Source: Minisyncoccota bacterium
GTDB taxonomy: Bacteria; Patescibacteriota; Minisyncoccia; Phycocordibacterales; CAJQIN01
Direction of reading: 5' to 3'
DNA length: 55,025 nucleotides
Assembly: GCA_905478465.1 (NCBI GenBank)
Contig: CAJQIN010000017.1
Span: 1-55,025, forward strand
The notes below the pieces were generated by a model. The model did no database searches. It was not told the origin of the DNA and saw only the letters and a list, made by a program, of their open reading frames with translations. Below are positions 7,243 to 21,949 of this stretch, piece by piece. A program made the position numbers and the translations under genes. How positions within the stretch are numbered: position 1 is the stretch's first letter; each line of letters begins with the position of its first letter.

Positions 7243-8706
7243 TTATTTATTTTGAGGATTGAGAAGTATTGAATCTCCCGCATTAAGACCGTTTAATATT
7301 TCTGTATTTCCATGAGAATCATTTTTTCCTATCATGACATCTTTTTTTTGTGTTTTTTTAGAAACCATGTCATAGGTGTATACATAAGTATTAGAATCCT
7401 CTTTGATAAGTGACCGAGTTGGTATCATCAAAACATTATCTCTTTTGTCTGTAATTATAGAGATGTCAGCTGTCATACCAGAACGTATTCGTGAATCTTC
7501 TGTGTCAAAATAGAACGTTGTTTTGTATGTAGAAATACCGTCTCGGATAGTTTCTATTGGGTCTATGGTAATCAGGTTTGCATAGAATATATCTGTTTCG
7601 TCATATGCATCAAAAATCATTTCTGCTCTTTGTTCGGGCATTATTTTTGCAATATAAACTTCAGGAACGTAGGCTTCTAATTTTAGTCCTTCTAAGCTAA
7701 TCATAGAAACAAGTTCTGTTCCAGAGCTCGCTATCTCACCAATTTGTGCATTTTGTACGGTGATGATTCCATCAAAAGGTGCGCGGATAATTGTTTTTGA
7801 GAGTTCTACTTGGTAGCCTTCAACACTTGCTTCAGCAGAAGTTATTTTACTTTGTTGTAGAGGTATTTTAGAACTTACTATTCTTAGAGACTCCTCTGCG
7901 GTGATTATGTTTGATAGGGCAGTTTGTACGGTATTTCTTGCTGTCGCTATGTCGCTTTTGAAAGATTCTCTGGTGCTAGTTGAAAGGTATGATTCAGCTG
8001 TATAAGAATTTACAGCGTTTGAAATGTTATCAAGAAAAGTAATTATATTAGAAATATCAGATTTTATTTTGATTACTGTATTTTCTGTAAAATTTTGTAC
8101 AGAAAGTGTACGAACAAGAGTTTCTAGATTCGAAAGTAACATCTGTACCTCACGACGTTTTGTATTGAGTTCTTCTTTGGCATCTAGATTTCCAAGAGCA
8201 AAAGATATTTTAGGATTAGCTGATTGTGGGTTTTCATAGAGAGGGTCAACATTGTTACGTATTGCATTATCTATTGAAGTAAATGAGTCTTGCAGGGTAG
8301 CAATCATTGATTCTTTTGCGTTGGTGAATTCCGTGGGGACACCTGAGGCATTTTTTGTGTATAGATCGTCTAGAGTAGTTACTTCTGACTGAAGATCAGC
8401 TTGTGCTTTGGAAAGATCAGAAATGATACCTGAGGAATCAATTTCAACAAGAGGATCTCCTTTTGATACGTGGTCTCCTGTTTCTGTGTACACATTATAA
8501 ATTTTTCCGCTTGTCTCAAAACCTAGATGCGCATCTCTAATAGGAGCAACTTTTCCTGAAACCTCGACGTTTTGTTCGAATGTCTTTAAGGAAACACTAA
8601 TTATTGTGCCATCTGTGTGAGTATTTGAGAATATCTTATATGCAGTATATCCCGTTAGACTTATTATAAGAATAACTAAAATAATAAAGACCTTTTTTTT
8701 AATCAT
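7243..8706 (-). CDS. efflux membrane-fusion/periplasmic adaptor (HlyD/MacA-like)
   Basis: N-terminal anchor, lipoyl motifs (GDHVSKGDPLV; IRAPFDGII), long coiled coil, RSGMTA, ILNGLNAGD. Confidence 0.88.
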   Translation of the reverse strand: MIKKKVFIILVILIISLTGYTAYKIFSNTHTDGTIISVSLKTFEQNVEVSGKVAPIRDAHLGFETSGKIYNVYTETGDHVSKGDPLVEIDSSGIISDLSKAQADLQSEVTTLDDLYTKNASGVPTEFTNAKESMIATLQDSFTSIDNAIRNNVDPLYENPQSANPKISFALGNLDAKEELNTKRREVQMLLSNLETLVRTLSVQNFTENTVIKIKSDISNIITFLDNISNAVNSYTAESYLSTSTRESFKSDIATARNTVQTALSNIITAEESLRIVSSKIPLQQSKITSAEASVEGYQVELSKTIIRAPFDGIITVQNAQIGEIASSGTELVSMISLEGLKLEAYVPEVYIAKIMPEQRAEMIFDAYDETDIFYANLITIDPIETIRDGISTYKTTFYFDTEDSRIRSGMTADISIITDKRDNVLMIPTRSLIKEDSNTYVYTYDMVSKKTQKKDVMIGKNDSHGNTEILNGLNAGDSILLNPQNK

Positions 8707-12517: not shown

Positions 12518-12847
12518 ATTATTTTTTAATTAGAAGCTAAAAAATATTACATGCTCAGTATCATCTAGGTCCCTGTAAAATTAGGGTAGGTAATGGTTTC
12601 TGTGCGTGTATTGAGTTATTATTTTTTGTCTTGTGTCGGTAATTTTAAAGCAAGAAAGGCACAACTTTGGCAAATAGTTTTATCAAAAAAAGGGTGTAAA
12701 AGGTGGATACGATAGTATACGTTAGTTTTAAATTATAAATTAAAATATTTTTAACTAAAATTCAGGATCAAGTGATTTTTAAGTTTTCAAAAAAGTATGA
12801 AATATTGGAGTATTTTAAAATGTTGAAATAGAGTCCTCCTCGGGATA

Positions 12848-12878
12848 CAAAAACCACCTTGTCATATAAAGTGGTTTT
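12848..12878 (-). terminator. hairpin, probable original tRNA-Asn terminator displaced by integration
   Basis: AAAACCAC...GTGGTTTT inverted repeat directly adjoining TGGCTCC (reverse complement GGAGCCA, a tRNA 3' end). Confidence 0.65.
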
Positions 12879-12879
12879 G

Positions 12880-12988
12880 GCTCCGTCTACAGGACGGGTT
12901 CAGAACCGTTAATTGGAAGAAAATACAAAAGGAATTACAGTTTAGTGGTATTTTAGAGATGTTTCCAGATTTAGTACTTCAGAACTAA
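12880..12988 (+). repeat. 109-bp direct repeat copy 1 (att arm encoding the putative displaced recombinase C-terminus)
   Basis: 105/109 identical to 14423-14531; reads LRLQDGFRTVNWKKIQKELQFSGILEMFPDLVLQN* from 12881. Confidence 0.92.
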
Positions 12989-13008
12989 ATAATGCTATTA
13001 TATTGTTT

Positions 13009-13374
13009 ATGAATAGTTTGGTTAAGAAAATCACAGTTATCGCTATTTCTTTTATGATTTTAATGGCAGGTGTATTCTGCTATCAAGGAATGCAGTCAAT
13101 GAGCTCACATTGTTCTGTTGATATGAACCATACTTCTGTTTGGTGTAGTGATTTTATTTCTCACGGAACAATAATAAGTAGTGCCATTATAACCACATTC
13201 GCTACAATCCTTTCTATACTAGCCGTTCTTTTTTCTATAAAGCCACTATTTGCTTTATTTACTAAAATAAAACAAGTAACAACTCTTTTATATAAAACTA
13301 GAGATAGAATACCAATACTTTCTCCAATACAACTCGCAATTTCAAACGGAATAATTCATCCTAGAATTCCTTAG
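13009..13374 (+). CDS. small membrane protein, Cys/His-containing, first gene of a metal-resistance cassette
   Basis: Two hydrophobic segments flanking SHCSVDMNH..WC..H; same strand and directly upstream of the DUF305 and DUF411 genes. Confidence 0.65.
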   Translation: MNSLVKKITVIAISFMILMAGVFCYQGMQSMSSHCSVDMNHTSVWCSDFISHGTIISSAIITTFATILSILAVLFSIKPLFALFTKIKQVTTLLYKTRDRIPILSPIQLAISNGIIHPRIP

Positions 13375-13419
13375 TTTTTAGTATTTTCTTTATTAAAAAC
13401 TTTAACTATTAAATTAAAT

Positions 13420-13830
13420 ATGAAAAACAATGTATTAGTAATTGGGTTACTAACCTTAATAATTGGTTTGTTTGTTGGATATACACTTGCTCCACGAACA
13501 ATGATGGATACTGAAACAATGGTAGAAATGCACGATGAGGTGGAAGAATATGAAGAACACGAAGAAGAAATTATCTCTGGAGACGGAGTGATGCAACACG
13601 CAATGGAAGAAATGATGCGTCCTCTTATGGGAAAAACAGGAGAAGAATATGAAAAAGCTTTTCTTGAAATGATGATAGTTCACCATATCGGAGCAATTGA
13701 AATGGCAGAAGATTTATTAGGGCAAACAGATAGACCAGAACTTGTAAAAATGGGTAATGATATTATCACTGTCCAAACAGAGGAAGTTGATATGATGAAA
13801 GGTTGGCTAGATGATTGGTTTAACTCATAA
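13420..13830 (+). CDS. DUF305 (CopM-like, ferritin-fold) exported metal-binding protein
   Basis: N-terminal TM, Met/His-rich linker, FLEMMIVHHIGAIEMA...IITVQTEEVDMMKGWL. Confidence 0.88.
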   Translation: MKNNVLVIGLLTLIIGLFVGYTLAPRTMMDTETMVEMHDEVEEYEEHEEEIISGDGVMQHAMEEMMRPLMGKTGEEYEKAFLEMMIVHHIGAIEMAEDLLGQTDRPELVKMGNDIITVQTEEVDMMKGWLDDWFNS

Positions 13831-13833
13831 ATT

Positions 13834-14298
13834 ATGTTGAATAAACTATTAACAGCTCTTCTTCTGATTATTCTAGTTGTTTCTATCGGTTGGATGATAA
13901 ATCAAAAAGATAAACCAGCATCAGAGAATAAAATCCTAGCTACTATCTATAAAGACCCATACTGTGGTTGTTGTGGAAAGTGGGGTTCTTATATGGAGAC
14001 TAAAGGATATGAGACAGATACAGTCTTGGAAGATGATATGTCAAAAATCAAAGAACAGTTTGGTGTTCCACAGGAACTTCAAAGTTGTCATACATCAGAA
14101 ATTGAAGGTTATGTTGTTGAGGGACATATCCCAAATGAAGCGGTAGAAAAGTTATTAGAAGAAAGACCTGATATAAAAGGAATTGGAATGGCAGGAATGC
14201 CTAGTGGTTCACCTGGTATGCCAGGACCAAAAGCAGACTTCTTAATCTATGAAATAAATCACGATGGAACTAAAGGTGATTTGTTTATGAAATTGTAA
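13834..14298 (+). CDS. DUF411 (CopG-like) copper-binding protein
   Basis: YKDPYCGCCGKW, SCHT, VEGHIP, GMPSGSPGM. Confidence 0.9.
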   Translation: MLNKLLTALLLIILVVSIGWMINQKDKPASENKILATIYKDPYCGCCGKWGSYMETKGYETDTVLEDDMSKIKEQFGVPQELQSCHTSEIEGYVVEGHIPNEAVEKLLEERPDIKGIGMAGMPSGSPGMPGPKADFLIYEINHDGTKGDLFMKL

Positions 14299-14325
14299 GT
14301 CGCTTCTATAGAATGTAAAACCTTG

Positions 14326-14359
14326 GAAAAACACCCCTTGAAAGACAGAGGTGTTTTTC
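14326..14359 (+). terminator. Rho-independent terminator of the copper cassette
   Basis: GAAAAACACC...GGTGTTTTTC followed by Ts. Confidence 0.7.
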
Positions 14360-14422
14360 TTTTAGTTCTGAATCCTGTTTGGGTTCAGAAAATATGTAGC
14401 TTAAAATAAGGCTCAAATAATA

Positions 14423-14531
14423 GCTCCGTCTACAGGACAGGTTCAGAACCGTTAATTGGAAGAAAATACAAAAGGAATTACAGTTTAGTGGTATTTTAGA
14501 GATGTTTCCAAGTTTAGTGCTTCAGAACTAA
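14423..14531 (+). repeat. 109-bp direct repeat copy 2
   Basis: Reads LRLQDRFRTVNWKKIQKELQFSGILEMFPSLVLQN* from 14424; 4 mismatches to copy 1. Confidence 0.92.
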
Positions 14532-14532
14532 T

Positions 14533-15861
14533 TTACTTATTTTTCTCGTTTTCAATTAAACCCCAATAGGGTTCATAGTAATTCTCTCCTGAAACATCCT
14601 TGAGTATTTTTATTTGTTCCTTCGGTATACTATCTATGATTGAATCCAAAAATGTTAAAAAGTCATCTTTATTTCTCAGTGTAAAAATATTTTGTGTAAA
14701 TTCATCTAACCTTAATTCAGAGGGCGTGTCTTTAGGTAATTCAGTTAGTAGTCTTTTTGATTCAATATCGATAAACATAGCATCGCAGTAGGGTAAAAAG
14801 CTAGAAATAAATTCAAAATCAACAAATGATTTAGGAGGTTGGGTTTTACCCAAATGAGCATCTCGAGAGAGATTTGCGTACATTACCGAACTTATTTTAA
14901 TCTTAGGTATTTGAAGTAAGGATTTATAATCTGAAAAATAATCAGATATCCTCTGAACAATCTCAGGCTCAGGCACATTGTTTAGCCTGCACTTTCTCAT
15001 TAAGTCATCCAGTAAATCCTTAGAAGTTGGTGGAAATATGTTTTCTGGTGTCCAATCTACTTTTTCACCTTTAGCTACTTTCAACATCAATTCTTTTTGT
15101 TTATCGTAAAATTTAACAACATTAGTTATGTGAAATCTTAAAGATAATGCTTCATTGCGTACGTTTTTTATAAAATCAAATTCCTTAACTTGTTTCCACT
15201 CTGACCATATCTCAGAAAGCCTTTTTTGTGATTGTTTATTTCTTTCCACCAAATCATTTATCTCGTCTTCTTTTGGGGTTTGTGAAACTGAAATTCCTAT
15301 ACCCATTGTCCATTCGTGTATCTTATCTCCTTCAAATGAAATGTTTTCTGGAGAAAAAGTAAAGTCTGTTTTTTTGTCCTGTAGCCAATTTTCAAAATGT
15401 TTAGAAATTTGCTCTCTTTCTATCAGATAGTCAGGAAAAAATGTTTTTCCTGAAGATAAGTGTTCATACAGTCTTCTGATATATTGAAAATTTATTTTTC
15501 CCACAGCGGATTCATTTTTATGAAAGAAACTGTCTGGAAATATTACCGCTTGAGATTTGGATACATACTCCAACTTTTCAAATAATTTCGTCCAGAACTG
15601 GTCGCCTTTTATTTTTTTATGTTTTGGGTGCGAAGAATCTAACAGTATTGTTAAATTACTTAAAATAAATTGGTCTAAATATACGACTTTCTTTTTTATT
15701 GAGGGGAAAGGAAAGGTTTCTTCGTGAGAACATTCAGTACACTCTCTTTGATAGGTTGAACTACCTGAAATTGGTATAAAAACACCGAAAGTATTTTCAC
15801 TTTTGCATTTAGGACAGTCTCTGTATGGACCAGAAATAAACATATCTCTTGTAATCTTCAT
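14533..15861 (-). CDS. hypothetical protein: N-terminal Zn ribbon plus putative PIN-like domain
   Basis: CPKC...CTEC; VVYLDQFIL and DFEFISSFLPYCDAMFID resemble PIN acidic motifs (by eye). Confidence 0.6.
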   Translation of the reverse strand: MKITRDMFISGPYRDCPKCKSENTFGVFIPISGSSTYQRECTECSHEETFPFPSIKKKVVYLDQFILSNLTILLDSSHPKHKKIKGDQFWTKLFEKLEYVSKSQAVIFPDSFFHKNESAVGKINFQYIRRLYEHLSSGKTFFPDYLIEREQISKHFENWLQDKKTDFTFSPENISFEGDKIHEWTMGIGISVSQTPKEDEINDLVERNKQSQKRLSEIWSEWKQVKEFDFIKNVRNEALSLRFHITNVVKFYDKQKELMLKVAKGEKVDWTPENIFPPTSKDLLDDLMRKCRLNNVPEPEIVQRISDYFSDYKSLLQIPKIKISSVMYANLSRDAHLGKTQPPKSFVDFEFISSFLPYCDAMFIDIESKRLLTELPKDTPSELRLDEFTQNIFTLRNKDDFLTFLDSIIDSIPKEQIKILKDVSGENYYEPYWGLIENEKNK

Positions 15862-15915
15862 TATATTTAGCTTATCAATCTTGATATGTAATGTAAACTA
15901 AAGTAAAGTATTATT

Positions 15916-16716
15916 ATGAATGATGACTCATATAGAAAGGAAAGAGAATCGCAGGCTTTTCAAAAGTTTATAAATTATGTGGAAAATTTAAAAAGTAATC
16001 CAGATTTCATATCTGAAATTAAGTGGTTTCGAAGATATCACGTTAAATATGATAGTTTAGAATCAATACCTGAAAATGGATTACCACTACCAAATAATCA
16101 CGAGGAACATTTTAATAATAAATTAGAATATGATTATATGATGAATAAAGAAGGGGATGATTACCATAATTTTCCTGAATTCCAAAAAAGAAAATGGGCT
16201 TTTGAGGAAAAATATGGTCTCAATATTTTTGGAGAAGCTTTTGATTATTTATTATTTTATAATTCAGTGATACCGATGATGGATATGGGCTATGCTCGTT
16301 TTTCTGATGTCTATGACTTGGTAAGTCTTTCTAATGCTTCCGTTGGATTATACGAAGACAGAAAAGGTTCAGATATGAACACAGGACTTTTTATTCGTTC
16401 AGAGGTTGCTCCAATTACCCCAGTAGCCATCGTCGTAAATCCATATATGACACAAAGAGATATTATTGATTTTATTAAAAAGACCTACAAGACATCAATA
16501 GAACCAATACAGAAAAGATATCGTAAGAAAAATATAAAATTAAAAGATTCAAGAAAAAAATCTTCTAAAAAACAAATTAGAAACGATTTTATATATGATA
16601 ATTGTGACTTACCACTAGCAGAACTAACGTCTCTTGTTGCAAGTAAGTTTGGAGATATTCTAGATTATACTTATATACAAAAAATAATTAAAAAAGAAAA
16701 AGAAAAAAGAGAATAA
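15916..16716 (+). CDS. hypothetical protein, basic C-terminus (possible DNA-binding)
   Basis: 266-aa ORF in the element, Lys/Arg-rich helical C-terminal third. Confidence 0.7.
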   Translation: MNDDSYRKERESQAFQKFINYVENLKSNPDFISEIKWFRRYHVKYDSLESIPENGLPLPNNHEEHFNNKLEYDYMMNKEGDDYHNFPEFQKRKWAFEEKYGLNIFGEAFDYLLFYNSVIPMMDMGYARFSDVYDLVSLSNASVGLYEDRKGSDMNTGLFIRSEVAPITPVAIVVNPYMTQRDIIDFIKKTYKTSIEPIQKRYRKKNIKLKDSRKKSSKKQIRNDFIYDNCDLPLAELTSLVASKFGDILDYTYIQKIIKKEKEKRE

Positions 16717-16809
16717 GTGAACTCACTTATTTTTTAAACGAATACAAATAAAATCGTATATTTATATTTTAAGTAAAGATATCCTGAAGACATCCTTCGG
16801 GATATTTTT

Positions 16810-16974
16810 ATGCAGGATATAAATCAAAATAAAAATAAGAAAAACAAAATAAACTTTCAAGATTTTTCGATTGAACAAAAGAAGAACCTTGTCGGTGCTT
16901 TCGTTTGGCTTATTGAACAAGATAAAAAACAAAATCCTGCACTTTATAAGTTAAAAACAGCAAAAAATGATTGA
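16810..16974 (+). CDS. small hypothetical protein (54 aa), absent from the ORF track
   Basis: MQDINQNKNKKNKINFQDFSIEQKKNLVGAFVWLIEQDKKQNPALYKLKTAKND*; stop overlaps the rep start. Confidence 0.6.
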   Translation: MQDINQNKNKKNKINFQDFSIEQKKNLVGAFVWLIEQDKKQNPALYKLKTAKND

Positions 16975-18088
16975 TACTGTATGTCTTTTAGTTCCTAAAC
17001 ACAAACTATATTTCTTATCAGGAATATCTAGTTGGGATTTGTATTCTAAAACAGATAACTATTCAAAGTTTGTTCGTAATCCAAGTAAGGCTGAAAAGGA
17101 AACTGGAAAATACTTCCCTAGACTTACTGGATATAGTCGTAGATTTGGACAAGACGCAAATGTGAAAATGGAATTTTCTGTTCCCAAGTTGCTTTATCTA
17201 AATAATTTAGATGAATTAGAAAATAAGGATTTTCCTGAGGTAATTGATACTTTAAGGGAAAGATTAAAAGATATGGGAGTAATTATTTCAAAATCGTTAC
17301 TTGAAAATGCACCAATTAGTTCTGTTCATTTCTCTAAAAATATTCTAATTGAAGACGGATATACAGTTAATTATTTAATTTCTGAAATGAATAAAGCAGA
17401 CTTAAGAAAGAGTTTTGATTTTGCTAAGACTAGATTTATGAATGATGGACAAAGTCTTTATGCTCACACAACTGCACATCAGATGGTCATTTATGACAAA
17501 ATCGCAGACCTTAAAAAAGGTAAGAAAAGAGCAATTGATAAAGACCCAACTCTGTATCAACAATCACTTTTTACCGAACTAAGTGGTCATAAAAACTTTA
17601 GTGAAATGAAAGAAGTTATCAGGTTTGAGATTAGGTTAAACCACAAACAAAAACTCAATAAAGTTTTAGAAAATCTTGGGTTTAAGAAAAATCCAACATT
17701 CAAAGATGTCTTTAGTTCTGAAATGAGCAAAAAGATAGTTAGCGACTATTGGAATACTCTAATTAAAGAAAGAAACTTAGGAATTTTCTCTATATCACTT
17801 AGCTTTAAGGAAATATTACAGATATTACTTGTTTCTGAAAATATGATAGGACCAAAGCAAGCAATATATTTTCTAGGACTATTTGTTCTTGCGAGAGACG
17901 GAAATGGTATGCGTGAACTTAGAAATATTATTTCAAAAAAGGCACACGACAGAACTTGGTATCGGATATCTAAAGATGTAAGAAGTGCTAATGAACTTAT
18001 AACAAAAAATAAACTTAGGAGCTGGGTTACCCAGATTGATAGAAAGTTATCAGATTATAAACCTTACAAAATTAAAGAAAATAAATAA
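16967..18088 (+). CDS. phage/plasmid replication initiator (gene II/X, Rep_trans-like rolling-circle type)
   Basis: MIDTV start, EFSVPKLLYLNN, VIYDKIAD, IRFEIRL motifs resemble this family. Confidence 0.68.
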   Translation: MIDTVCLLVPKHKLYFLSGISSWDLYSKTDNYSKFVRNPSKAEKETGKYFPRLTGYSRRFGQDANVKMEFSVPKLLYLNNLDELENKDFPEVIDTLRERLKDMGVIISKSLLENAPISSVHFSKNILIEDGYTVNYLISEMNKADLRKSFDFAKTRFMNDGQSLYAHTTAHQMVIYDKIADLKKGKKRAIDKDPTLYQQSLFTELSGHKNFSEMKEVIRFEIRLNHKQKLNKVLENLGFKKNPTFKDVFSSEMSKKIVSDYWNTLIKERNLGIFSISLSFKEILQILLVSENMIGPKQAIYFLGLFVLARDGNGMRELRNIISKKAHDRTWYRISKDVRSANELITKNKLRSWVTQIDRKLSDYKPYKIKENK

Positions 18089-18089
18089 T

Positions 18090-18500
18090 ATGAATAAAGA
18101 TAAAAAACAAAAAAGCACTGAAGAAAAATTCAAAGATAGTCTGTCAGAAAGTATGGCAATGTGTCACAGAAATATACTTTCTGAAAATGTAAAAAGAGGT
18201 ATGAGATTAAAAAGAATAAGAAATTTTGAACTAAAGTTTGGCTTAGATAAACACGAATCATTAGGCAAAGAATTTATAGAAAGAGTTAGATTGTATAAGA
18301 GTAAAATTAAAGAGGTCGAAACAAGTACCCTAGAAGAAACTCTTGATAGTTTCAAGAGAGATTTGTACCCACAGAAAGAATTAAAGGTTTGGGAAGAAAT
18401 AGCAAATTACTATAGTAGTAAAGTAAAAGACAATCCTAAGATGAACCTCAAAGAAAAGAGAGCATTATTCACTGAGGCTTTAATTTGGACATTAGGGTAA
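18090..18500 (+). CDS. hypothetical protein containing a serine-recombinase helix-E-like segment
   Basis: ATG 1 nt after the rep stop; contains SMAMCHRNILSENVKRGMR. Confidence 0.65.
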   Translation: MNKDKKQKSTEEKFKDSLSESMAMCHRNILSENVKRGMRLKRIRNFELKFGLDKHESLGKEFIERVRLYKSKIKEVETSTLEETLDSFKRDLYPQKELKVWEEIANYYSSKVKDNPKMNLKEKRALFTEALIWTLG

Positions 18501-18545
18501 AGGGCTTGGCTTGTAAACCATTGTAAAGTATAATAATAAACAAAT

Positions 18546-19367
18546 ATGAATAAAAAAATAACTAAAAAAGAAGAGGTTGCTTTGTTTGAGCATAATGAAG
18601 TTAGAAAAATCTGGCACAAAGAAAGGTGGTATTTTGCCATAAATGATGTTGTCCAAATACTAACTGAATCTAAAGATGTTCAGGGCTATATAAAAGATAT
18701 AAGAAGACGTGATAAGGAGATTTCTAAAGGGTGGGGGCAAATTGCCACCCCCCTTGTTGTGGACACCAAAGGAGGAAAACAGAAAATGAATTGTTCTGAT
18801 TTAGAAGGAATGTTTCGAATCATCCAGTCTATACCTTCTCAAAAAGCAGAACCGTTTAAGAGATGGCTTGCTAAAGTTGGTAAAGAGAGAATTGATGAAA
18901 TTGCTGACCCAGAGTTAGCAGTTAATAGAGCTAAGGAAATTTATACTAAAAAAGGGTACGACAAAACTTGGATTGATAAAAGAATGAGAGGTATTGCAGT
19001 CAGGAATACTCTTACGGATGAATGGAAGGAAAGAGATATAAAAGGTTTCGAATATGGAATTCTTACTAATGAAATTTATTCAGGAGTATTTGAACAGGAC
19101 CATAAATCCCTAATGAAAATTAAAGGTCTAGATAAGAAAAAAGGAAATAATCTAAGGGACCATATGGGTGATGTTGAACTTATTCTGACAATGCTTGCTG
19201 AAGCCACTTCTACTGAAATTACAAAAAGTAAAGATTCAAAAGGTCTAGACAATATTAAGAAGGATGTTAAGAAAGGGGGTCAGATTGCAGGAGAAACAAG
19301 AAAGAAGATTGAGAAAGAGACAGGTCAAAAAGTTATTACTCAAAAAAATGTTAAAAAATTAAAATAA
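18546..19367 (+). CDS. Bro-N domain (phage antirepressor-like) protein
   Basis: EVRKIW..ERWYFAINDVV, RIIQSIPSQKAEPFKRWLAKVG.ERIDEIADPE, NLRDHM. Confidence 0.88.
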   Translation: MNKKITKKEEVALFEHNEVRKIWHKERWYFAINDVVQILTESKDVQGYIKDIRRRDKEISKGWGQIATPLVVDTKGGKQKMNCSDLEGMFRIIQSIPSQKAEPFKRWLAKVGKERIDEIADPELAVNRAKEIYTKKGYDKTWIDKRMRGIAVRNTLTDEWKERDIKGFEYGILTNEIYSGVFEQDHKSLMKIKGLDKKKGNNLRDHMGDVELILTMLAEATSTEITKSKDSKGLDNIKKDVKKGGQIAGETRKKIEKETGQKVITQKNVKKLK

Positions 19368-19371
19368 TATT

Positions 19372-19563
19372 ATGAGTAACACTAATAAAGAAAAAGAATT
19401 TTATAAAGCAGAGGATTTGGCTAAGATTCTAGATGTGAATATTATGACCATATATAGATATATTAAAGCAAATAAACTAAAAGCTTATAAGATTGGTAAA
19501 GAGTATCGTATAGAGAGCGTTGAGTTTAATAATTTTTTAAAAAGTGTGCAAAATAAAAAATAA
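19372..19563 (+). CDS. excisionase-family helix-turn-helix protein (HTH_17-like)
   Basis: YKAEDLAKILDVNIMTIYRYIKANKLKAYKIGKEYRI. Confidence 0.88.
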   Translation: MSNTNKEKEFYKAEDLAKILDVNIMTIYRYIKANKLKAYKIGKEYRIESVEFNNFLKSVQNKK

Positions 19564-19565
19564 TT

Positions 19566-20039
19566 ATGCGAAGTAAACTTATAAAACTACTAAGATGTCT
19601 TGAAGAAGAAAGTGGTTTTTATAATAAGTATGCGGATAGTTTTGGAGAACCACAATGTGATTACGAAGTTAAAGAGTATATAGATTTTCCCAATTATAGA
19701 TTAGTTGTAAGGCGATATAATGAAAAATATCCATTACCAAAACATAATGGTTTACAACCAATAACTCTAGATAATGGTATTAAAGCAGAATTAAAAAGAA
19801 TGGAAATGGACGGACTTATAATGATAGGAAATCAGAGAGCTACCAAATATGCTTATGCAAATAATAATCGTGGTCCAGATTATGATGACGGAACATCTTT
19901 TACTACAGAAAGTATAGTCCTCACAACAAAAGGAAAAAGCGGATGGAGATATTTTATACATAAAGCAACCGAAAATCCTGTAACAACAACGATGTCTATT
20001 ATTGCTATTGTTATATCACTAATCTCACTACTCCTATGA
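19566..20039 (+). CDS. hypothetical protein with C-terminal transmembrane anchor
   Basis: 157 aa, LTTKG followed by hydrophobic tail; ATGA overlap with the recombinase. Confidence 0.7.
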   Translation: MRSKLIKLLRCLEEESGFYNKYADSFGEPQCDYEVKEYIDFPNYRLVVRRYNEKYPLPKHNGLQPITLDNGIKAELKRMEMDGLIMIGNQRATKYAYANNNRGPDYDDGTSFTTESIVLTTKGKSGWRYFIHKATENPVTTTMSIIAIVISLISLLL

Positions 20040-21586
20040 AAACAATAATCCTAGCTAGAGTTTCAACAGAAGACCAAGATTCAAATTCTGCTCAAGTTAC
20101 AAGGCTGAAGGATTTTGCAACAAGTAAAGGTTTTGCAGATAAACCAAAGATTTATGAAATTGAGGAATCATCGTCTAAGGCTAATAGGGAAAAATTACAA
20201 GAAGTAATTGAGTATATTAAAAAATCAAAAGAAAAAGTATCTTTGTTTGTTGATACTATTGACCGACTTCAAAGAAGTTTCAGAGAATCAGTTGTTTTCG
20301 ATGATTTAAGAAAAGCAGGAAAGGTTGAAATATTTTTCTTTCGAGAAAACCTACATTTACACCAAAAATCAAACAGTGCCGATTTAATTCGTTGGGATAT
20401 GGGTGTAATGTTCGCAAGAAGTTATGTTCTTCAGCTTAGTGATAATGTTAAAAGAAGGTTTGAACAAATGAGAAGAGAAGGGCATTATTTTGGTCCGCTA
20501 CCTTTAGGTTATCTAGGCGTTGCAGAAGATGAAAAGAAAAGATTAAGAGGAGAAATTTTGATTGACCCAATAAGAGGTCATCTTATACAAAAGATGTTCG
20601 AGCTTTATGCTACTGGAAATTACTCAATTACAACACTGAGAAATGAGATGATAAAACTTGGTCTTAGAACTCATAAAGACAAGCTTCCTGTAAGAAGTAT
20701 TATAGATGGAACTCTTAAAAATACCTTGTATTTTGGACTAGCACAGTCCGAACAGTATGGTCCTTATGAGGTCGAAAACGTGCCTAGATTGATTTCTAAA
20801 GACCTGTTTGATAGATGTATGGAAATACGCTTAAAACGCAAGAAAACTCCATCAAAAGCGAATTTAAAGAAAGAATATATCTTAGGAGATGGTCTTTTGA
20901 AATGTAAAAAATGTGGATGTTCTATATCTTTTGAAACTAAAACAAAACCAAGTGGAAAAGTTTATATTATAGGTGCCTGCACAAACGCAAAGGGAATGTG
21001 TAAGAAGGAATATGTAAATGAAAATGATTTTCTAAAACCAATTTATAAAGTTCTAGATAAATTTGAAACCATTACTGAAGATGTTCAAAATGATTTACTT
21101 GCTGAAATTAGAAAGCATTCAGATTCAGAAATTGAATTCCATCAAATTCAGATAAATAGAATTAGAAAACAATATCAAGATATTAAAGATAAAGATGATA
21201 GATTATTAGATGCTTTTCTGGACCAGAGTATTACTAAGGATATATATGACAAAAAACACCAAGAGTATGCCGATAAGCTACAGCTCTTAAATATTGAACT
21301 TGAAGAACATACAGATGCCAACTCAGAATACCAAACAACCCTTGTAACAGTGCTTTCTGTGGCAAAAAGAGCCAGAAGTATATTCGATGGTTGTTCTGAA
21401 CCAATGCAAAAAAGAGCATTTTTGAAATTCATACTTCAGAACCCAGTTGTAAATGGAAAAAAGCTAGAGTTTTCAATGGTTTCTCCATACAATTTGGTAC
21501 TTGAACTAGCTGATAGTCCTGATTTGCTCCCCCGGCAGGGCTCGAACCTGCGACAAATCGATTACATTGATCCTAAAATTACTTAA
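20036..21586 (+). CDS. large serine recombinase (integrase)
   Basis: ARVS catalytic motif (S10), DRLQR, PLGY, recombinase domain, CKKCG...C...C Zn ribbon, coiled coil; last 18 aa are antisense tRNA/intron. Confidence 0.93.
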   Translation: MKTIILARVSTEDQDSNSAQVTRLKDFATSKGFADKPKIYEIEESSSKANREKLQEVIEYIKKSKEKVSLFVDTIDRLQRSFRESVVFDDLRKAGKVEIFFFRENLHLHQKSNSADLIRWDMGVMFARSYVLQLSDNVKRRFEQMRREGHYFGPLPLGYLGVAEDEKKRLRGEILIDPIRGHLIQKMFELYATGNYSITTLRNEMIKLGLRTHKDKLPVRSIIDGTLKNTLYFGLAQSEQYGPYEVENVPRLISKDLFDRCMEIRLKRKKTPSKANLKKEYILGDGLLKCKKCGCSISFETKTKPSGKVYIIGACTNAKGMCKKEYVNENDFLKPIYKVLDKFETITEDVQNDLLAEIRKHSDSEIEFHQIQINRIRKQYQDIKDKDDRLLDAFLDQSITKDIYDKKHQEYADKLQLLNIELEEHTDANSEYQTTLVTVLSVAKRARSIFDGCSEPMQKRAFLKFILQNPVVNGKKLEFSMVSPYNLVLELADSPDLLPRQGSNLRQIDYIDPKIT

Positions 21587-21949
21587 AGGCATGGACTATA
21601 TCATTACCCGTCCATTATAAAATGGGTGTGGGTACAAGGCGCTTCGACCTAATGTATCTAATTAGGCCTACTCCCGTTAGGGATAGTCTCTGAACCTTCA
21701 GCATCTTTTTTAAAAAGATGAAGCTTGGCTGCTGATTACCCGCGATTGAACGCTAGGGCTTCCAGCAATTCACCTCGTTTTTCGACCTGACTTTCGTACA
21801 GGAAGCTGCGTAATACCTTTGTGAAGTTTTGTATATTCAGCACGATCGGTATATGTTCTTGTTTGTACGTATGGCATATATAAATATACGATACATGGAA
21901 GTTAGAACTTCTTCACAGTCGATTGCTCTACCAGCTGAGCTACAGGGGA
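21527..21949 (-). tRNA. tRNA-Asn(GTT), intron-containing (exons 21949-21915 and 21564-21527)
   Basis: Joined exons TCCCCTGTAGCTCAGCTGGTAGAGCAATCGACTGT|TAATCGATTTGTCGCAGGTTCGAGCCCTGCCGGGGGAG fold into a full cloverleaf with anticodon GTT. Confidence 0.93.
21565..21914 (-). ncRNA. group I self-splicing intron, 350 nt, at tRNA position 35/36
   Basis: P GAATTGCTGGAA (21771-21760), Q AATCAGCAGCC, R GTTCAGAGACTA, S AATGATATAGTCC; exon U before the 5' splice site; terminal G. Confidence 0.92.

Follow-up and report, generated by a model that had tools for sequence, protein, structure and literature searches.

Background

The locus studied here, a small mobile element sitting behind a tRNA gene, raises the question of why an element of this kind would carry a second copy of its own attachment arm, and what the DNA bracketed by the two copies represents. 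The locus lies in a 55,025-nucleotide stretch (the window) of contig CAJQIN010000017.1 from the tiny-genome bacterium with assembly GCA_905478465.1, where the two arms bracket a recombinase-less cassette with copper-associated genes. A first-pass annotation, made from the sequence alone, had described two 109-bp direct repeats as duplicated att arms around a three-gene operon, and proposed two alternative left junctions of an element at a tRNA gene, with either an integron-like accretion array or a remnant of tandem integration as the origin. Here, we show that this observation holds, whereas the interpretation is partly supported, as the structural reading is borne out but activity of the arms and an integron-like nature remain inferences.

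Patescibacteria have tiny genomes and few described mobile elements are known in them. The locus, together with its relatives, shows one tRNA gene acting as a landing pad where serine-recombinase elements and small recombinase-less cassettes pile up, the cassettes carrying copper, detoxification and methyltransferase genes. If either arm is active, cargo can be dropped into the chromosome or carried away, which gives a concrete route for gene gain and loss in these organisms. We found no paper describing this arrangement in searches of open-access full text, which excluded subscription journals and supplementary files.

Anatomy of the repeats and the attachment site

A repeat search of the window returned one family of two 109-nt direct copies, at 12880-12988 and 14423-14531, with 96% identity and a spacing of 1543 nt. 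Alignment with 100-nt flanks showed that identity starts exactly at GCTCC and ends just after the TAA stop, while the flanks on both sides are unrelated. The four mismatches are at 12896, 12968, 12969 and 12976. A 16-nt word from the start of the repeat occurs twice in the window against 0.10 expected from shuffles (0 of 100 shuffles reached 2), and only these two near-identical copies exist in the 927-kb genome.

The GCTCC start is also the antisense 3' end of a tRNA-Asn(GTT) on the minus strand at 21526-21949. ARAGORN does not call this tRNA in the unspliced sequence, a point on which the first-pass annotation is corrected, because a 350-nt group I intron at 21565-21914 (Rfam RF00028, 75.2 bits) splits it into exons 21949-21915 and 21564-21526. 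ARAGORN calls Asn(GTT) for the 21915|21564 splice, and although the brute-force splice scan behind this call gives many spurious tRNA calls, only the Asn(GTT) splice is backed by an independent contig, from an intron-less relative, which joins 21564 to 21915. A second tRNA-Asn, on another contig, has a different 3' end and no arm, and we take it to be unrelated or contaminant.

A large serine recombinase (LSR) gene on the plus strand at 20036-21586 runs into this tRNA. The integrated form encodes 516 aa, of which the last 20 codons are read from the antisense of the tRNA, and matches the Pfam families Resolvase (PF00239, 4.6e-15), Recombinase (PF07508, 4.7e-6) and Zn_ribbon_recom (PF13408, 5.6e-4), the last at 20.7 bits and thus below its curated cut-off of 25.3. 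The attR, at 21496-21530 on the plus strand, consists of a P arm inside the recombinase ORF (GGTACTTGAAC, the inverted counterpart of the P' motif) plus the GCTCC core, and homology with the relative G002 starts exactly at 21526. Only GCTCC is common to both arms and the tRNA end, and the P arm GGTACTTGAAC and the P' motif GTTCAGAACC are inverted around about 21524-21527.

Each repeat is the element-side (P') att arm. Copy 1 (12880-12988, plus strand; outer attL) starts with the core, then carries the half-site TGGAC..GTTCAGAAC..ATTGG, and encodes a 35-aa recombinase tail and the TAA stop. In copy 2 (14423-14531, plus strand; inner attL) the half-site is intact and the tail ORF is open, and the mismatch at 14439 falls on a poorly conserved column of a profile built from 58 distinct arms of other genomes. 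In these 58 arms, information content is about 0 left of the core and rises to more than 2 bits at its first base, the G of GCTCC. Joined to the recombinase gene at 21525, either copy gives an open frame of 532 codons that stops at the last base of the arm, and the tails are 66-69% identical over 35 aa to the natural C-terminus of a 537-aa homologue (P0023). The predicted circles of 8646 bp (21526-12880) and 7103 bp (21526-14423) agree with those of the first-pass annotation.

Among 8000 candidates scored, 1898 were homologues of the recombinase at E<=1e-20. Of 120 homologues that were fetched, regular expressions assigned a tail of the P' kind to 5 and a tRNA-Asn-antisense tail to 36, while 65 fell in a class of other or short tails and 14 matched no motif; by eye, many of these are integrated forms too, and about five represent a second tail type. 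An AF2 model of P0023 shows a long coiled coil at 353-449 but gives the tail low confidence (pLDDT 43-64), and therefore says little about the tail's role. The site logic of the family is compact and readable, with attP inside the ORF, a P' motif conserved as far as Chlamydiota and different tRNA targets, which could make it a source of new site-specific integrases.

Left of copy 1, the host-side (B) arm at 12850-12879 is a hairpin flanked by A and T runs that abuts the core (-9.3 kcal/mol, z -2.4). It has no homology with the left flank of copy 2 and is the likely bidirectional terminator of the tRNA before the island arrived.

Between the copies lie three plus-strand ORFs. The first (13003-13374) encodes a 123-aa hydrophobic, TM protein without any Pfam or PHROG hit, the second (13420-13830) a DUF305 protein (PF03713, E 4.4e-17) and the third (13834-14298) a DUF411 protein (PF04214, E 3.8e-23). 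In G002, the DUF305 homologue lies beside homologues of a metal-sensing repressor and a 663-aa ATPase-like ORF, names that rest on our reading of N-termini rather than on a family search, and the DUF305-DUF411 pair sits in a larger chromosomal metal operon without arms. The genes are followed by a terminator-like plus-strand hairpin with a U-run at 14325-14360 (-14.3 kcal/mol, z -2.3); a consensus terminator scan did not call the hairpins cited here. GC content does not set the cassette apart, at 0.31-0.35 against 0.28-0.32 for the element and 0.33-0.40 for the host.

The first-pass annotation had stated that the DNA left of copy 2 resembles neither the recombinase-side arm nor the host arm. 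This is correct, but the statement needs amending, as the sequence is a conserved 58-nt module (X; 14365-14422, plus strand). It consists of the motif GTTCTGAATCCTGTTTGGGT, an inverted P'-like half-site that forms a 10-bp hairpin (-13.7 kcal/mol, z -5.6), then a second weak hairpin, and ends exactly at the core of copy 2. To the right of copy 2, the cargo and maintenance genes of the 7.1-kb element occupy 14533-20039 and include a 442-aa minus-strand ORF ending at 14533, one base after copy 2, ORFs of 266, 373 and 154 aa, a Bro-N/anti-repressor-like protein (18546-19367; Bro-N 3.2e-12), a 63-aa excisionase-like HTH protein (19372-19563) and a 157-aa ORF. PHROG matches among them were phrog_15286 (3.8e-74) and phrog_66, 'excisionase and transcriptional regulator' (6.4e-8).

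Recurrence in related genomes

The first-pass annotation had named as a refuting condition that homologous loci never carry more than one repeat. We found the contrary: of 401 genomes of the order, 93 carry such arms, and at least 17 of these have same-strand arrays of 2-6 arms. Further, 3 of 60 recombinase loci with 8 kb or more of upstream flank carry two arms. Arrays end at a complement-strand tRNA-Asn in 7 of 18 fetched loci, and also in genome G192, while 20 of 84 near-full LSR ORFs in 80 loci end on tRNA-Asn. As to polarity, in 6 of 14 arrays the most distal arm has a mutated core, as read by eye from the list of arms.

The site is occupied serially. Two of the recombinase loci (L077 and L079) hold two whole elements in tandem, with the distal recombinase reading into the next arm, and 9 of 80 loci have more than one LSR hit, although two of the nine are a single ORF broken into pieces. 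The three species of the window's genus carry three different elements at this tRNA. The same cassette-plus-element layout recurs in loci L082 and L091, each of which has a one-gene recombinase-less unit between two arms, 681 and 776 nt apart, followed by a full element.

The X module was seen in seven contexts across three families, each 0.3-1.5 kb downstream of an arm and each ending 57-59 nt later at GCTC(C), with gap-free alignment to the left flanks of arms in genomes G010 and G277. It is joined at the core to a P' arm in three contexts, to tRNA-3'-like sequence in two (G192 and G242) and to other DNA in two. In G192, the module is followed by 15 nt identical to that genome's tRNA-Asn 3' end, so that junctions of the kind predicted for a cassette left behind the tRNA exist in nature.

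These data also bear on an integron-like reading, in which recombinase-less units (P' arm, cargo and an end module such as X) would themselves be mobile circles whose own site is end-module|P', inserted at the tRNA by a recombinase supplied in trans. The end module would regenerate a usable target, arrays would grow at the tRNA-proximal end, and the copper unit would be such a cassette rather than a remnant. In support, genome G352 has six arms ending at tRNA-Asn, where a 52-nt site (24 nt left plus 28 nt of arm) is 98-100% identical three times and its left 26 nt recur at the tRNA, while the cargo and the rest of the arms differ. Only 5 of 19 sequences scanned (18 loci and the window) have any hit to the LSR profile, and no Resolvase domain lies inside the arrays of the 5 genomes searched, of which G010 has none in the whole genome. 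The conservation of X across families with fixed spacing to the core points the same way, and the cargo is of the accessory kind, including glyoxalases, methyltransferases, MOSC, GrpB-kinase and a sigma factor. However, no free cassette circle was seen, and left flanks of arms are in general not conserved. Only G352 and G192 repeat the tRNA's left flank, and in G192 the repeat is a 100% identical 171-nt block at a contig end, which may be an assembly effect. Recombinase remnants and P|P' junctions do occur (loci L056, L061, L065, L077 and L079), as accretion with decay predicts. No cassette cargo is shared between genomes or arrays at 80% nt identity or more over 200 nt, only recombinase genes and one element core gene being shared. 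The copper cassette as a travelling unit likewise found no support, as it was not found in any other array, and DUF411 homologues occur in 27 of the 401 genomes but none at an arm position. We regard the integron-like reading as possible but unlikely.

Assembly evidence

An artefact, in which two strain variants, or an island plus a separate 1.5-kb molecule, were collapsed into one tandem path, was examined in the public contigs of the likely source runs. These k=31 contigs break at the arm SNPs, and their unitig graph cannot phase the arms, allows both paths and fits a single-arm island plus a 1,543-bp circle equally well. The copy-number pattern fits two arms per genome, as the shared 71-mer has about twice the depth of its flanks (26.6 against 13.4, and 14.9-16 against about 8). 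It is about twice as deep in the two runs where it was listed as its own piece (X3 and X4); in run X1, the 71-nt piece listed is a different stretch, also about twice as deep. The cassette unitig has a depth of 17.5 against 13.3 in X1, 1.3 times its flanks, which counts for an artefact, and of 7.2 against 7.3 in X4, equal to its flanks, which counts against one. The identical core of the repeat is only 71 nt long, which, assuming typical short-read lengths, is shorter than a read, so the original assembler may have had reads spanning it. The same two-arm layout also occurs in independent assemblies (L082 and L091). We consider an artefact very unlikely. Among these k=31 contigs, no circle, empty-site or X|tRNA junction of this very element was seen, and the joints listed, with sides of 21-25 nt, match none of the predicted junctions.

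Interpretation

In the reading that we favour with moderate confidence, the window holds a two-unit island built by serial site-specific recombination at the last five bases of tRNA-Asn(GTT). In this view, the LSR element has its attP inside the 3' end of its own recombinase gene, and integration therefore leaves the gene's last 35 codons, as the P' arm, at the far (left) end of the element. Unit 1 (12880-14422) is a 1,543-bp recombinase-less cassette with P' arm, three copper-associated genes, terminator and X module, which we infer once abutted the tRNA (X|tRNA). Unit 2 (14423-21525) is a complete 7,103-bp element that then would have integrated at the same tRNA end, pushing unit 1 outward and creating the X|P'2 junction. 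Both arms are attL-type sites with intact half-sites, and with a directionality factor, for which the 63-aa excisionase-like ORF is the candidate, the recombinase could pair attR with either arm. The inner arm would give a 7,103-bp circle and leave the cassette behind the tRNA, whereas the outer arm would give an 8,646-bp circle that carries the cassette along (cis-mobilisation). The anatomy, the reading frames, the recurrence of every junction type in other genomes and the serial occupation of the site are established by our analysis, while the order of events, the activity of either arm and the occurrence of either excision are inferred.

Some observations do not fit this reading easily. No circle, empty-site or X|tRNA junction of this very element was seen in the k=31 contigs, whose unitig graph fits a single-arm island plus a 1,543-bp circle equally well. 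The copper cassette was not found in any other array, and no cassette cargo is shared between arrays at 80% nt identity or more. Canonical serine integrases do not recombine attP with sites whose left half is not B-type, and that this family does so is inferred from genome anatomy only. No remnant of a recombinase gene lies in unit 1, so the model does not explain how a recombinase-less unit ending exactly at the core arose. Further, the two arms are 96% identical, whereas arms within other arrays are about 75-88% alike, which would also fit a duplication-type origin. Another possible origin of the layout is a double integration by a near-identical element, into a secondary site inside a resident element or in tandem, after which homologous recombination between the similar recombinase-proximal parts deleted the resident's right-hand part and left its arm and left-hand cargo in front of the newcomer. 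The close identity of the arms and the tandem whole elements in L077 and L079 support it. However, it needs a secondary target inside the first element, and the sequence found there is the X module, which recurs at cassette ends in six other genomes and points to a regular junction rather than a chance pseudo-site. A tblastn search of the genome also found one copy of the recombinase gene and no trace of a hybrid or second one, and we regard this origin as unlikely.

A broader hypothesis, which is not excluded but which we consider improbable, is that a large family of serine recombinases in Patescibacteria, and reaching Chlamydiota, runs an integron-like gene-cassette platform at tRNA 3' ends. 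Recombinase-less cassettes, with a P' half-site at one end and a target-regenerating module at the other, would be stacked at the tRNA and picked up or dropped by whichever recombinase-bearing element visits, and swapping the conserved 35-aa tail for tRNA-encoded residues on integration would act as a built-in switch of directionality or activity.

Comparison with described systems

The closest described systems are composite islands of the staphylococcal cassette chromosome (SCC), i.e. SCCmec with ACME or COMER modules, moved by the CcrAB large serine recombinases (PMC7029739). There too, a large serine recombinase integrates elements at the 3' end of one conserved gene, recombinase-less modules, including copper-resistance ones, sit beside the recombinase-bearing element and are bounded by repeats of the site, and either the recombinase-bearing element alone or the whole composite can excise. 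Recombinase-less modules in this position were found in the window, in L082 and L091 and in the arrays, while excision is here only a prediction. The locus differs in that the target is tRNA-Asn and not rlmH (orfX), there is a single recombinase rather than a CcrA/CcrB pair, the repeated unit is a 109-nt element-side arm encoding the recombinase's own C-terminus rather than a 15-bp repeat, and the host is, judging by its relatives, a Paceibacterota (CPR) bacterium.

In the tycheposons of Prochlorococcus (bioRxiv 10.1101/2020.12.28.424599), newly arriving elements integrate at the same tRNA and push older ones inward, degraded remnants accumulate and the cargo is niche-adaptive. Accretion of this kind also occurs with ICE and CIME elements in streptococci. 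In tycheposons, however, 910 of 937 elements use tyrosine recombinases and units are separated by partial tRNA copies, whereas the separators in the window are element-side arms that share only 5 nt with the tRNA, and the enzyme is a serine recombinase whose ORF spans attP. Partial tRNA-end copies do occur in genomes G015 and G192.

With integrons, the arrays share small, mostly one- to three-gene cassettes in one orientation beside a fixed attachment point, and accessory cargo. However, the only recombinase between the arms and the tRNA is a serine recombinase and not a tyrosine IntI, and the recombinase rides on a mobile element, or is absent, rather than sitting fixed beside the array. The cassette here has its own terminator, and the sites appear conserved in sequence rather than folded as attC. 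In this regard, the X module has two hairpins with z -5.4 over 101 nt, but that a hairpin always abuts the core was not supported: 41% of 56 left flanks of arms fold at -8 kcal/mol or better, against 18% and 29% in controls, and the difference is not significant (Wilcoxon p 0.054 and 0.51).

Elements whose attP lies inside a gene, so that integration changes the product, include those with SSV-type archaeal integrases, which are split by integration, and some mycobacteriophages, with integration-dependent immunity. Integration likewise changes the C-terminal coding part of a key element gene here, but only the last 35 codons of a serine recombinase are swapped, for about 3-20 codons read from the tRNA antisense.

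Structure of the repeat and the island

Between 10 and 24 kb, the window, a whole 55-kb contig of a 927-kb genome in 50 contigs, contains one family of long direct repeats with two 109-nt copies, at 12880-12988 and 14423-14531, which are 96% identical and lie 1543 nt apart. When the copies were aligned with 100 nt of flank on each side, identity began exactly at GCTCC and stopped just after a TAA, while the flanks did not align, and the four mismatches fall at 12896, 12968, 12969 and 12976. A 16-nt word from the start of the repeat occurs twice, against 0.10 expected, and none of 100 shuffles reached two. No third near-identical copy exists in the genome. The first-pass annotation, which had described two such repeats bracketing a three-gene unit with its own terminator, is correct in its description.

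Between the copies lie three plus-strand ORFs, encoding a 123-aa hydrophobic protein without a family, a DUF305 protein and a DUF411 protein, followed by a hairpin with a U-run at 14325-14360 (-14.3 kcal/mol, z -2.3) that was not listed by a simple terminator scan. A 442-aa minus-strand ORF ends one base after copy 2. From left to right, the island consists of a host hairpin at 12850-12878 that abuts the core, the first arm, the three copper-associated genes, a terminator, a 58-nt module here called X (14365-14422), the second arm, about 5.5 kb of element genes, the recombinase, and finally the core and the tRNA. The element genes include a Bro-N/anti-repressor-like protein and a 63-aa excisionase-like HTH ORF (phrog_66, 6.4e-8; 19372-19563, plus strand), which lies 470 nt upstream of the recombinase and is a candidate directionality factor; a similar small HTH ORF lies at the contig end of the element in genome G001. 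The predicted circles are 8,646 and 7,103 bp.

The repeat as an element-side attachment arm

A 516-aa large serine recombinase is encoded at 20036-21586 (plus strand), matching Resolvase and Recombinase above their cut-offs and the zinc ribbon just below. Its 3' end runs into a tRNA gene on the other strand (21526-21949, minus strand), which ARAGORN misses because it is split in the anticodon loop by a 350-nt group I intron (21565-21914; RF00028 at 21571-21887, 75.2 bits). The same intron is present in both other species of the genus. Removal of 21565-21914 gives a 74-nt tRNA-Asn(GTT), and although the brute-force splice scan also gave many spurious calls, this splice is the one backed by an intron-less relative's contig, which joins 21564 to 21915. 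The last bases of the tRNA, read on the plus strand, are GCTCC at 21526-21530, the same five bases that open both repeats, and homology of the relative G002 with the window starts exactly at 21526.

Joining the recombinase frame at 21525 to either repeat gives a 532-codon open frame that stops at the last base of the repeat, and the two 35-aa tails are 66-69% identical to the natural C-terminus of P0023, a 537-aa homologue. We classified the C-termini of the 120 listed homologues with simple regular expressions, by which 5 carry such tails and 36 end in residues read from the tRNA-Asn antisense (..QDSNL..). A further 65 fell into a class of other or short ends, of which by eye most stop within a few codons of the junction and about five carry a second arm-like tail type, and 14 did not match the anchor motif, although by eye about eleven of these are of the tRNA-antisense type too. 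So attP of this family lies inside the 3' end of the recombinase gene, the repeat is the element-side P' arm, and integration replaces a conserved tail (D.FRT.NW..) with residues read from the tRNA antisense. The P arm (GGTACTTGAAC, 21496-21506) and the P' motif (GTTCAGAACC) are inverted around about 21524-21527, as expected for a serine-integrase site.

A conserved module to the left of copy 2

The left flank of copy 2, which had been annotated only as resembling neither the recombinase-side arm nor the outer host arm, aligns without gaps, from GTTCTGAAYCC..TCTGGGT to the core, with the left flanks of arms in genomes G010 and G277, which represent two other families of the order. A motif search found this X module in 7 distinct contexts, namely the window and genomes G010, G277, G192, G240, G141 and G242; in each it ends 57-59 nt later at GCTC(C), and in each it lies 0.3-1.5 kb downstream of an arm on the same strand. 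What follows the core varies, being a P' arm in three contexts, 15 nt identical to that genome's own tRNA-Asn 3' end in G192, a TCGAACC-type tRNA-like stretch in G242, and other DNA in two contexts. This is the pattern of a left half of a recombination junction that has met different partners, and the G192 case is the junction predicted by the first-pass annotation, in which a cassette is left behind the tRNA. The G192 locus (L021, contig C10, reverse strand 1-1243) also carries a 171-nt block, comprising 15 nt of the tRNA end, then 157 nt, then the downstream flank of the tRNA, that is repeated at 100% identity on both sides of an arm-cargo-X unit; since the outer copy sits at the contig end, this is either real duplication or an assembly effect.

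The X motif is an inverted P'-like half-site, and in the window it forms a 10-bp hairpin (z -5.6). Its recurrence bears on the possibility that a near-identical element integrated twice and that a deletion followed. Such a history would explain the 96% identity of the arms, but it needs a chance target that happens to be the recurrent X module, and we regard it as doubtful. A second recurrent left-flank motif (TGTCAAT/ATGTCAAGT, about 5-14 nt before the core), seen by eye only, occurs in several genera, in the left flanks of arms at loci L054, L052 and L082 and on contig C9 of the window's own genome, and once at a tRNA, in the tRNA flank of locus L060.

Recurrence of arms and arrays across the order

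A profile built from four tail peptides, two from the window and two from diverged copies on contigs C2 and C9 of the same genome, matched 93 of 401 genomes of the order at E<=0.01, in 77 of 223 genera. At least 17 of these, including the window's genome but leaving out one further genome marked as unpublished, have two to five same-strand hits within 10 kb, so that multiple repeats at one locus, whose absence from homologous loci had been named as grounds for rejecting the initial interpretation, are found. At the DNA level, the arrays hold up to six arms (genome G352) or five (G010). In 58 distinct arms, information content is near zero to the left of the core and exceeds 2 bits from its first base, and conserved columns continue to at least +57.

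The arrays end at a complement-strand tRNA-Asn(GTT) in 7 of the 18 fetched loci, while most of the others stop at contig ends. At locus L057 (G015:C23), a 19-nt partial copy of the tRNA-Asn 3' end (about 8595-8615) lies about 190 nt before the real tRNA end, between the last arm and the tRNA. A recombinase profile hit only 5 of the 19 sequences scanned (the 18 loci and the window), these being the window, one full gene and three fragments, and a Resolvase search of five array-bearing genomes found none inside the arrays. The cargo includes an FAD oxidoreductase, methyltransferases, MOSC, a sigma factor, a ParB-like protein, glyoxalases, a histidine phosphatase and a GrpB-kinase fusion. In 6 of 14 arrays, as read from a listing of the arms, the most distal arm has a mutated core, which fits distal meaning older.

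The array of G352 (L048, contig C4, 7036-14853) has six arms ending at tRNA-Asn with no recombinase. In it, a 52-nt site recurs three times at 98-100% identity and its left 26 nt also flank the tRNA, while everything else differs, and one cassette boundary carries the same left motif inverted. This array is the main support for an integron-like platform, one of the origins offered in the first-pass annotation. However, no cassette is shared between arrays at 80% nucleotide identity or more and the copper genes are chromosomal elsewhere, and we consider this reading possible but unlikely.

Recombinase-bearing loci

A scan of species-representative genomes gave 80 loci (L072-L151), holding 84 near-full recombinase ORFs. 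Of these, 41 end on a complement-strand tRNA, with 20 on Asn(GTT) and the others on Gln, His, Ser(TGA), Glu, the Tyr/Thr cluster of Chlamydiota, Trp and Leu, whereas 3 run straight into an arm, 7 stop at contig ends and 33 have no tRNA called, although split tRNAs like that of the window would be missed. The family reaches Chlamydiota at 38-40% identity, with the GGAC..GTTCAGAAC..TGG arm motif kept. Of the 60 with at least 8 kb upstream, 36 have one arm, 21 have none detected and 3 have two.

Loci L082 and L091 repeat the layout of the window, with a one-gene recombinase-less unit between arms 681 and 776 nt apart, then a full element. Loci L077 and L079 are tandem elements in which the distal recombinase reads into the next element's arm, so in nature this family does integrate next to an occupied site. 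Within the window's own genus, three species carry three different elements at this tRNA, one of which belongs to a distant recombinase lineage that also reads across the tRNA end. At locus L011 (G002:C8, 4581-6248), a 555-aa recombinase of a distant lineage, with 24-26% identity to that of the window, reads across the same tRNA-Asn end, and no arm of the window's type was found in that genome.

Support for the tandem arrangement

Four public runs, which may include the source samples and were examined as k=31 contigs, hold the stretch, and their unitigs break exactly at the SNPs. The shared 71-mer 12897-12967 has about twice the flank depth in runs X3 and X4 (14.9-16 against about 8), and in run X1 another 71-nt piece inside copy 2 has a depth of 26.6 against 13.4. 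The cassette unitig has a depth of 17.5 against 13.3 (X1), 7.2 against 7.3 (X4), and 10.6 and 4.6 against 8.2-8.7 (X3). This fits two arms and one cassette per genome, but the graph of these contigs cannot phase the arms, and a single-arm island plus a 1.5-kb circle is not excluded. We regard an assembly artefact as very unlikely.

Probable serial accretion and comparison with known systems

We consider serial site-specific accretion the most likely explanation, with moderate confidence. In this view, a recombinase-less arm-cargo-X unit abutted the tRNA, the 7.1-kb element then integrated at the tRNA end, and either arm could now serve as attL. None of the readings considered here, including this one, accounts for how recombinase-less units that end exactly at the core arise. 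The layout of the island, the open frames across both junctions and the recurrence of arms, arrays and tandem elements are observed in the sequences, whereas the order of events and any excision through either arm are inferred. The initial interpretation, which proposed two alternative left junctions and a drop-off cargo unit, is partly supported.

The closest known system is the staphylococcal SCC composite island, in which serine recombinases act at one conserved target, ccr-less ACME or COMER modules are bounded by site repeats, and either SCCmec alone or the composite excises (PMC7029739). Accretion of elements at one tRNA, with older ones pushed inward, is described for tycheposons (bioRxiv 10.1101/2020.12.28.424599). 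What differs here is the phylum, the single recombinase whose ORF spans attP, the long coding arm as separator, the arrays of up to six units and the X module, and a full-text literature search, which did not extend to supplementary files or subscription journals, found no description of this.

Further features of the window and its genome

Three more, diverged arm copies lie in the same genome away from tRNA-Asn, at C9:562-685 (plus strand), C2:153772-153882 (plus strand) and C2:131405-131451 (minus strand). Two are within 560 and 140 nt of contig ends, and the third follows a sequence that looks like a recombinase P arm (an open frame of 132 aa), while only one recombinase gene was found by tblastn. 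A second, intron-less tRNA-Asn(GTT) with a different 3' end sits next to an AT-rich tandem repeat on a 4.2-kb contig (C23:411-484, minus strand) and may be a contaminant, the contamination estimate of the genome being 4.9%. In the window, about 330 nt of AT-rich non-coding DNA (12518-12849) lies between the helicase-like gene and the host hairpin, with no arm and no Rfam hit at gathering score.
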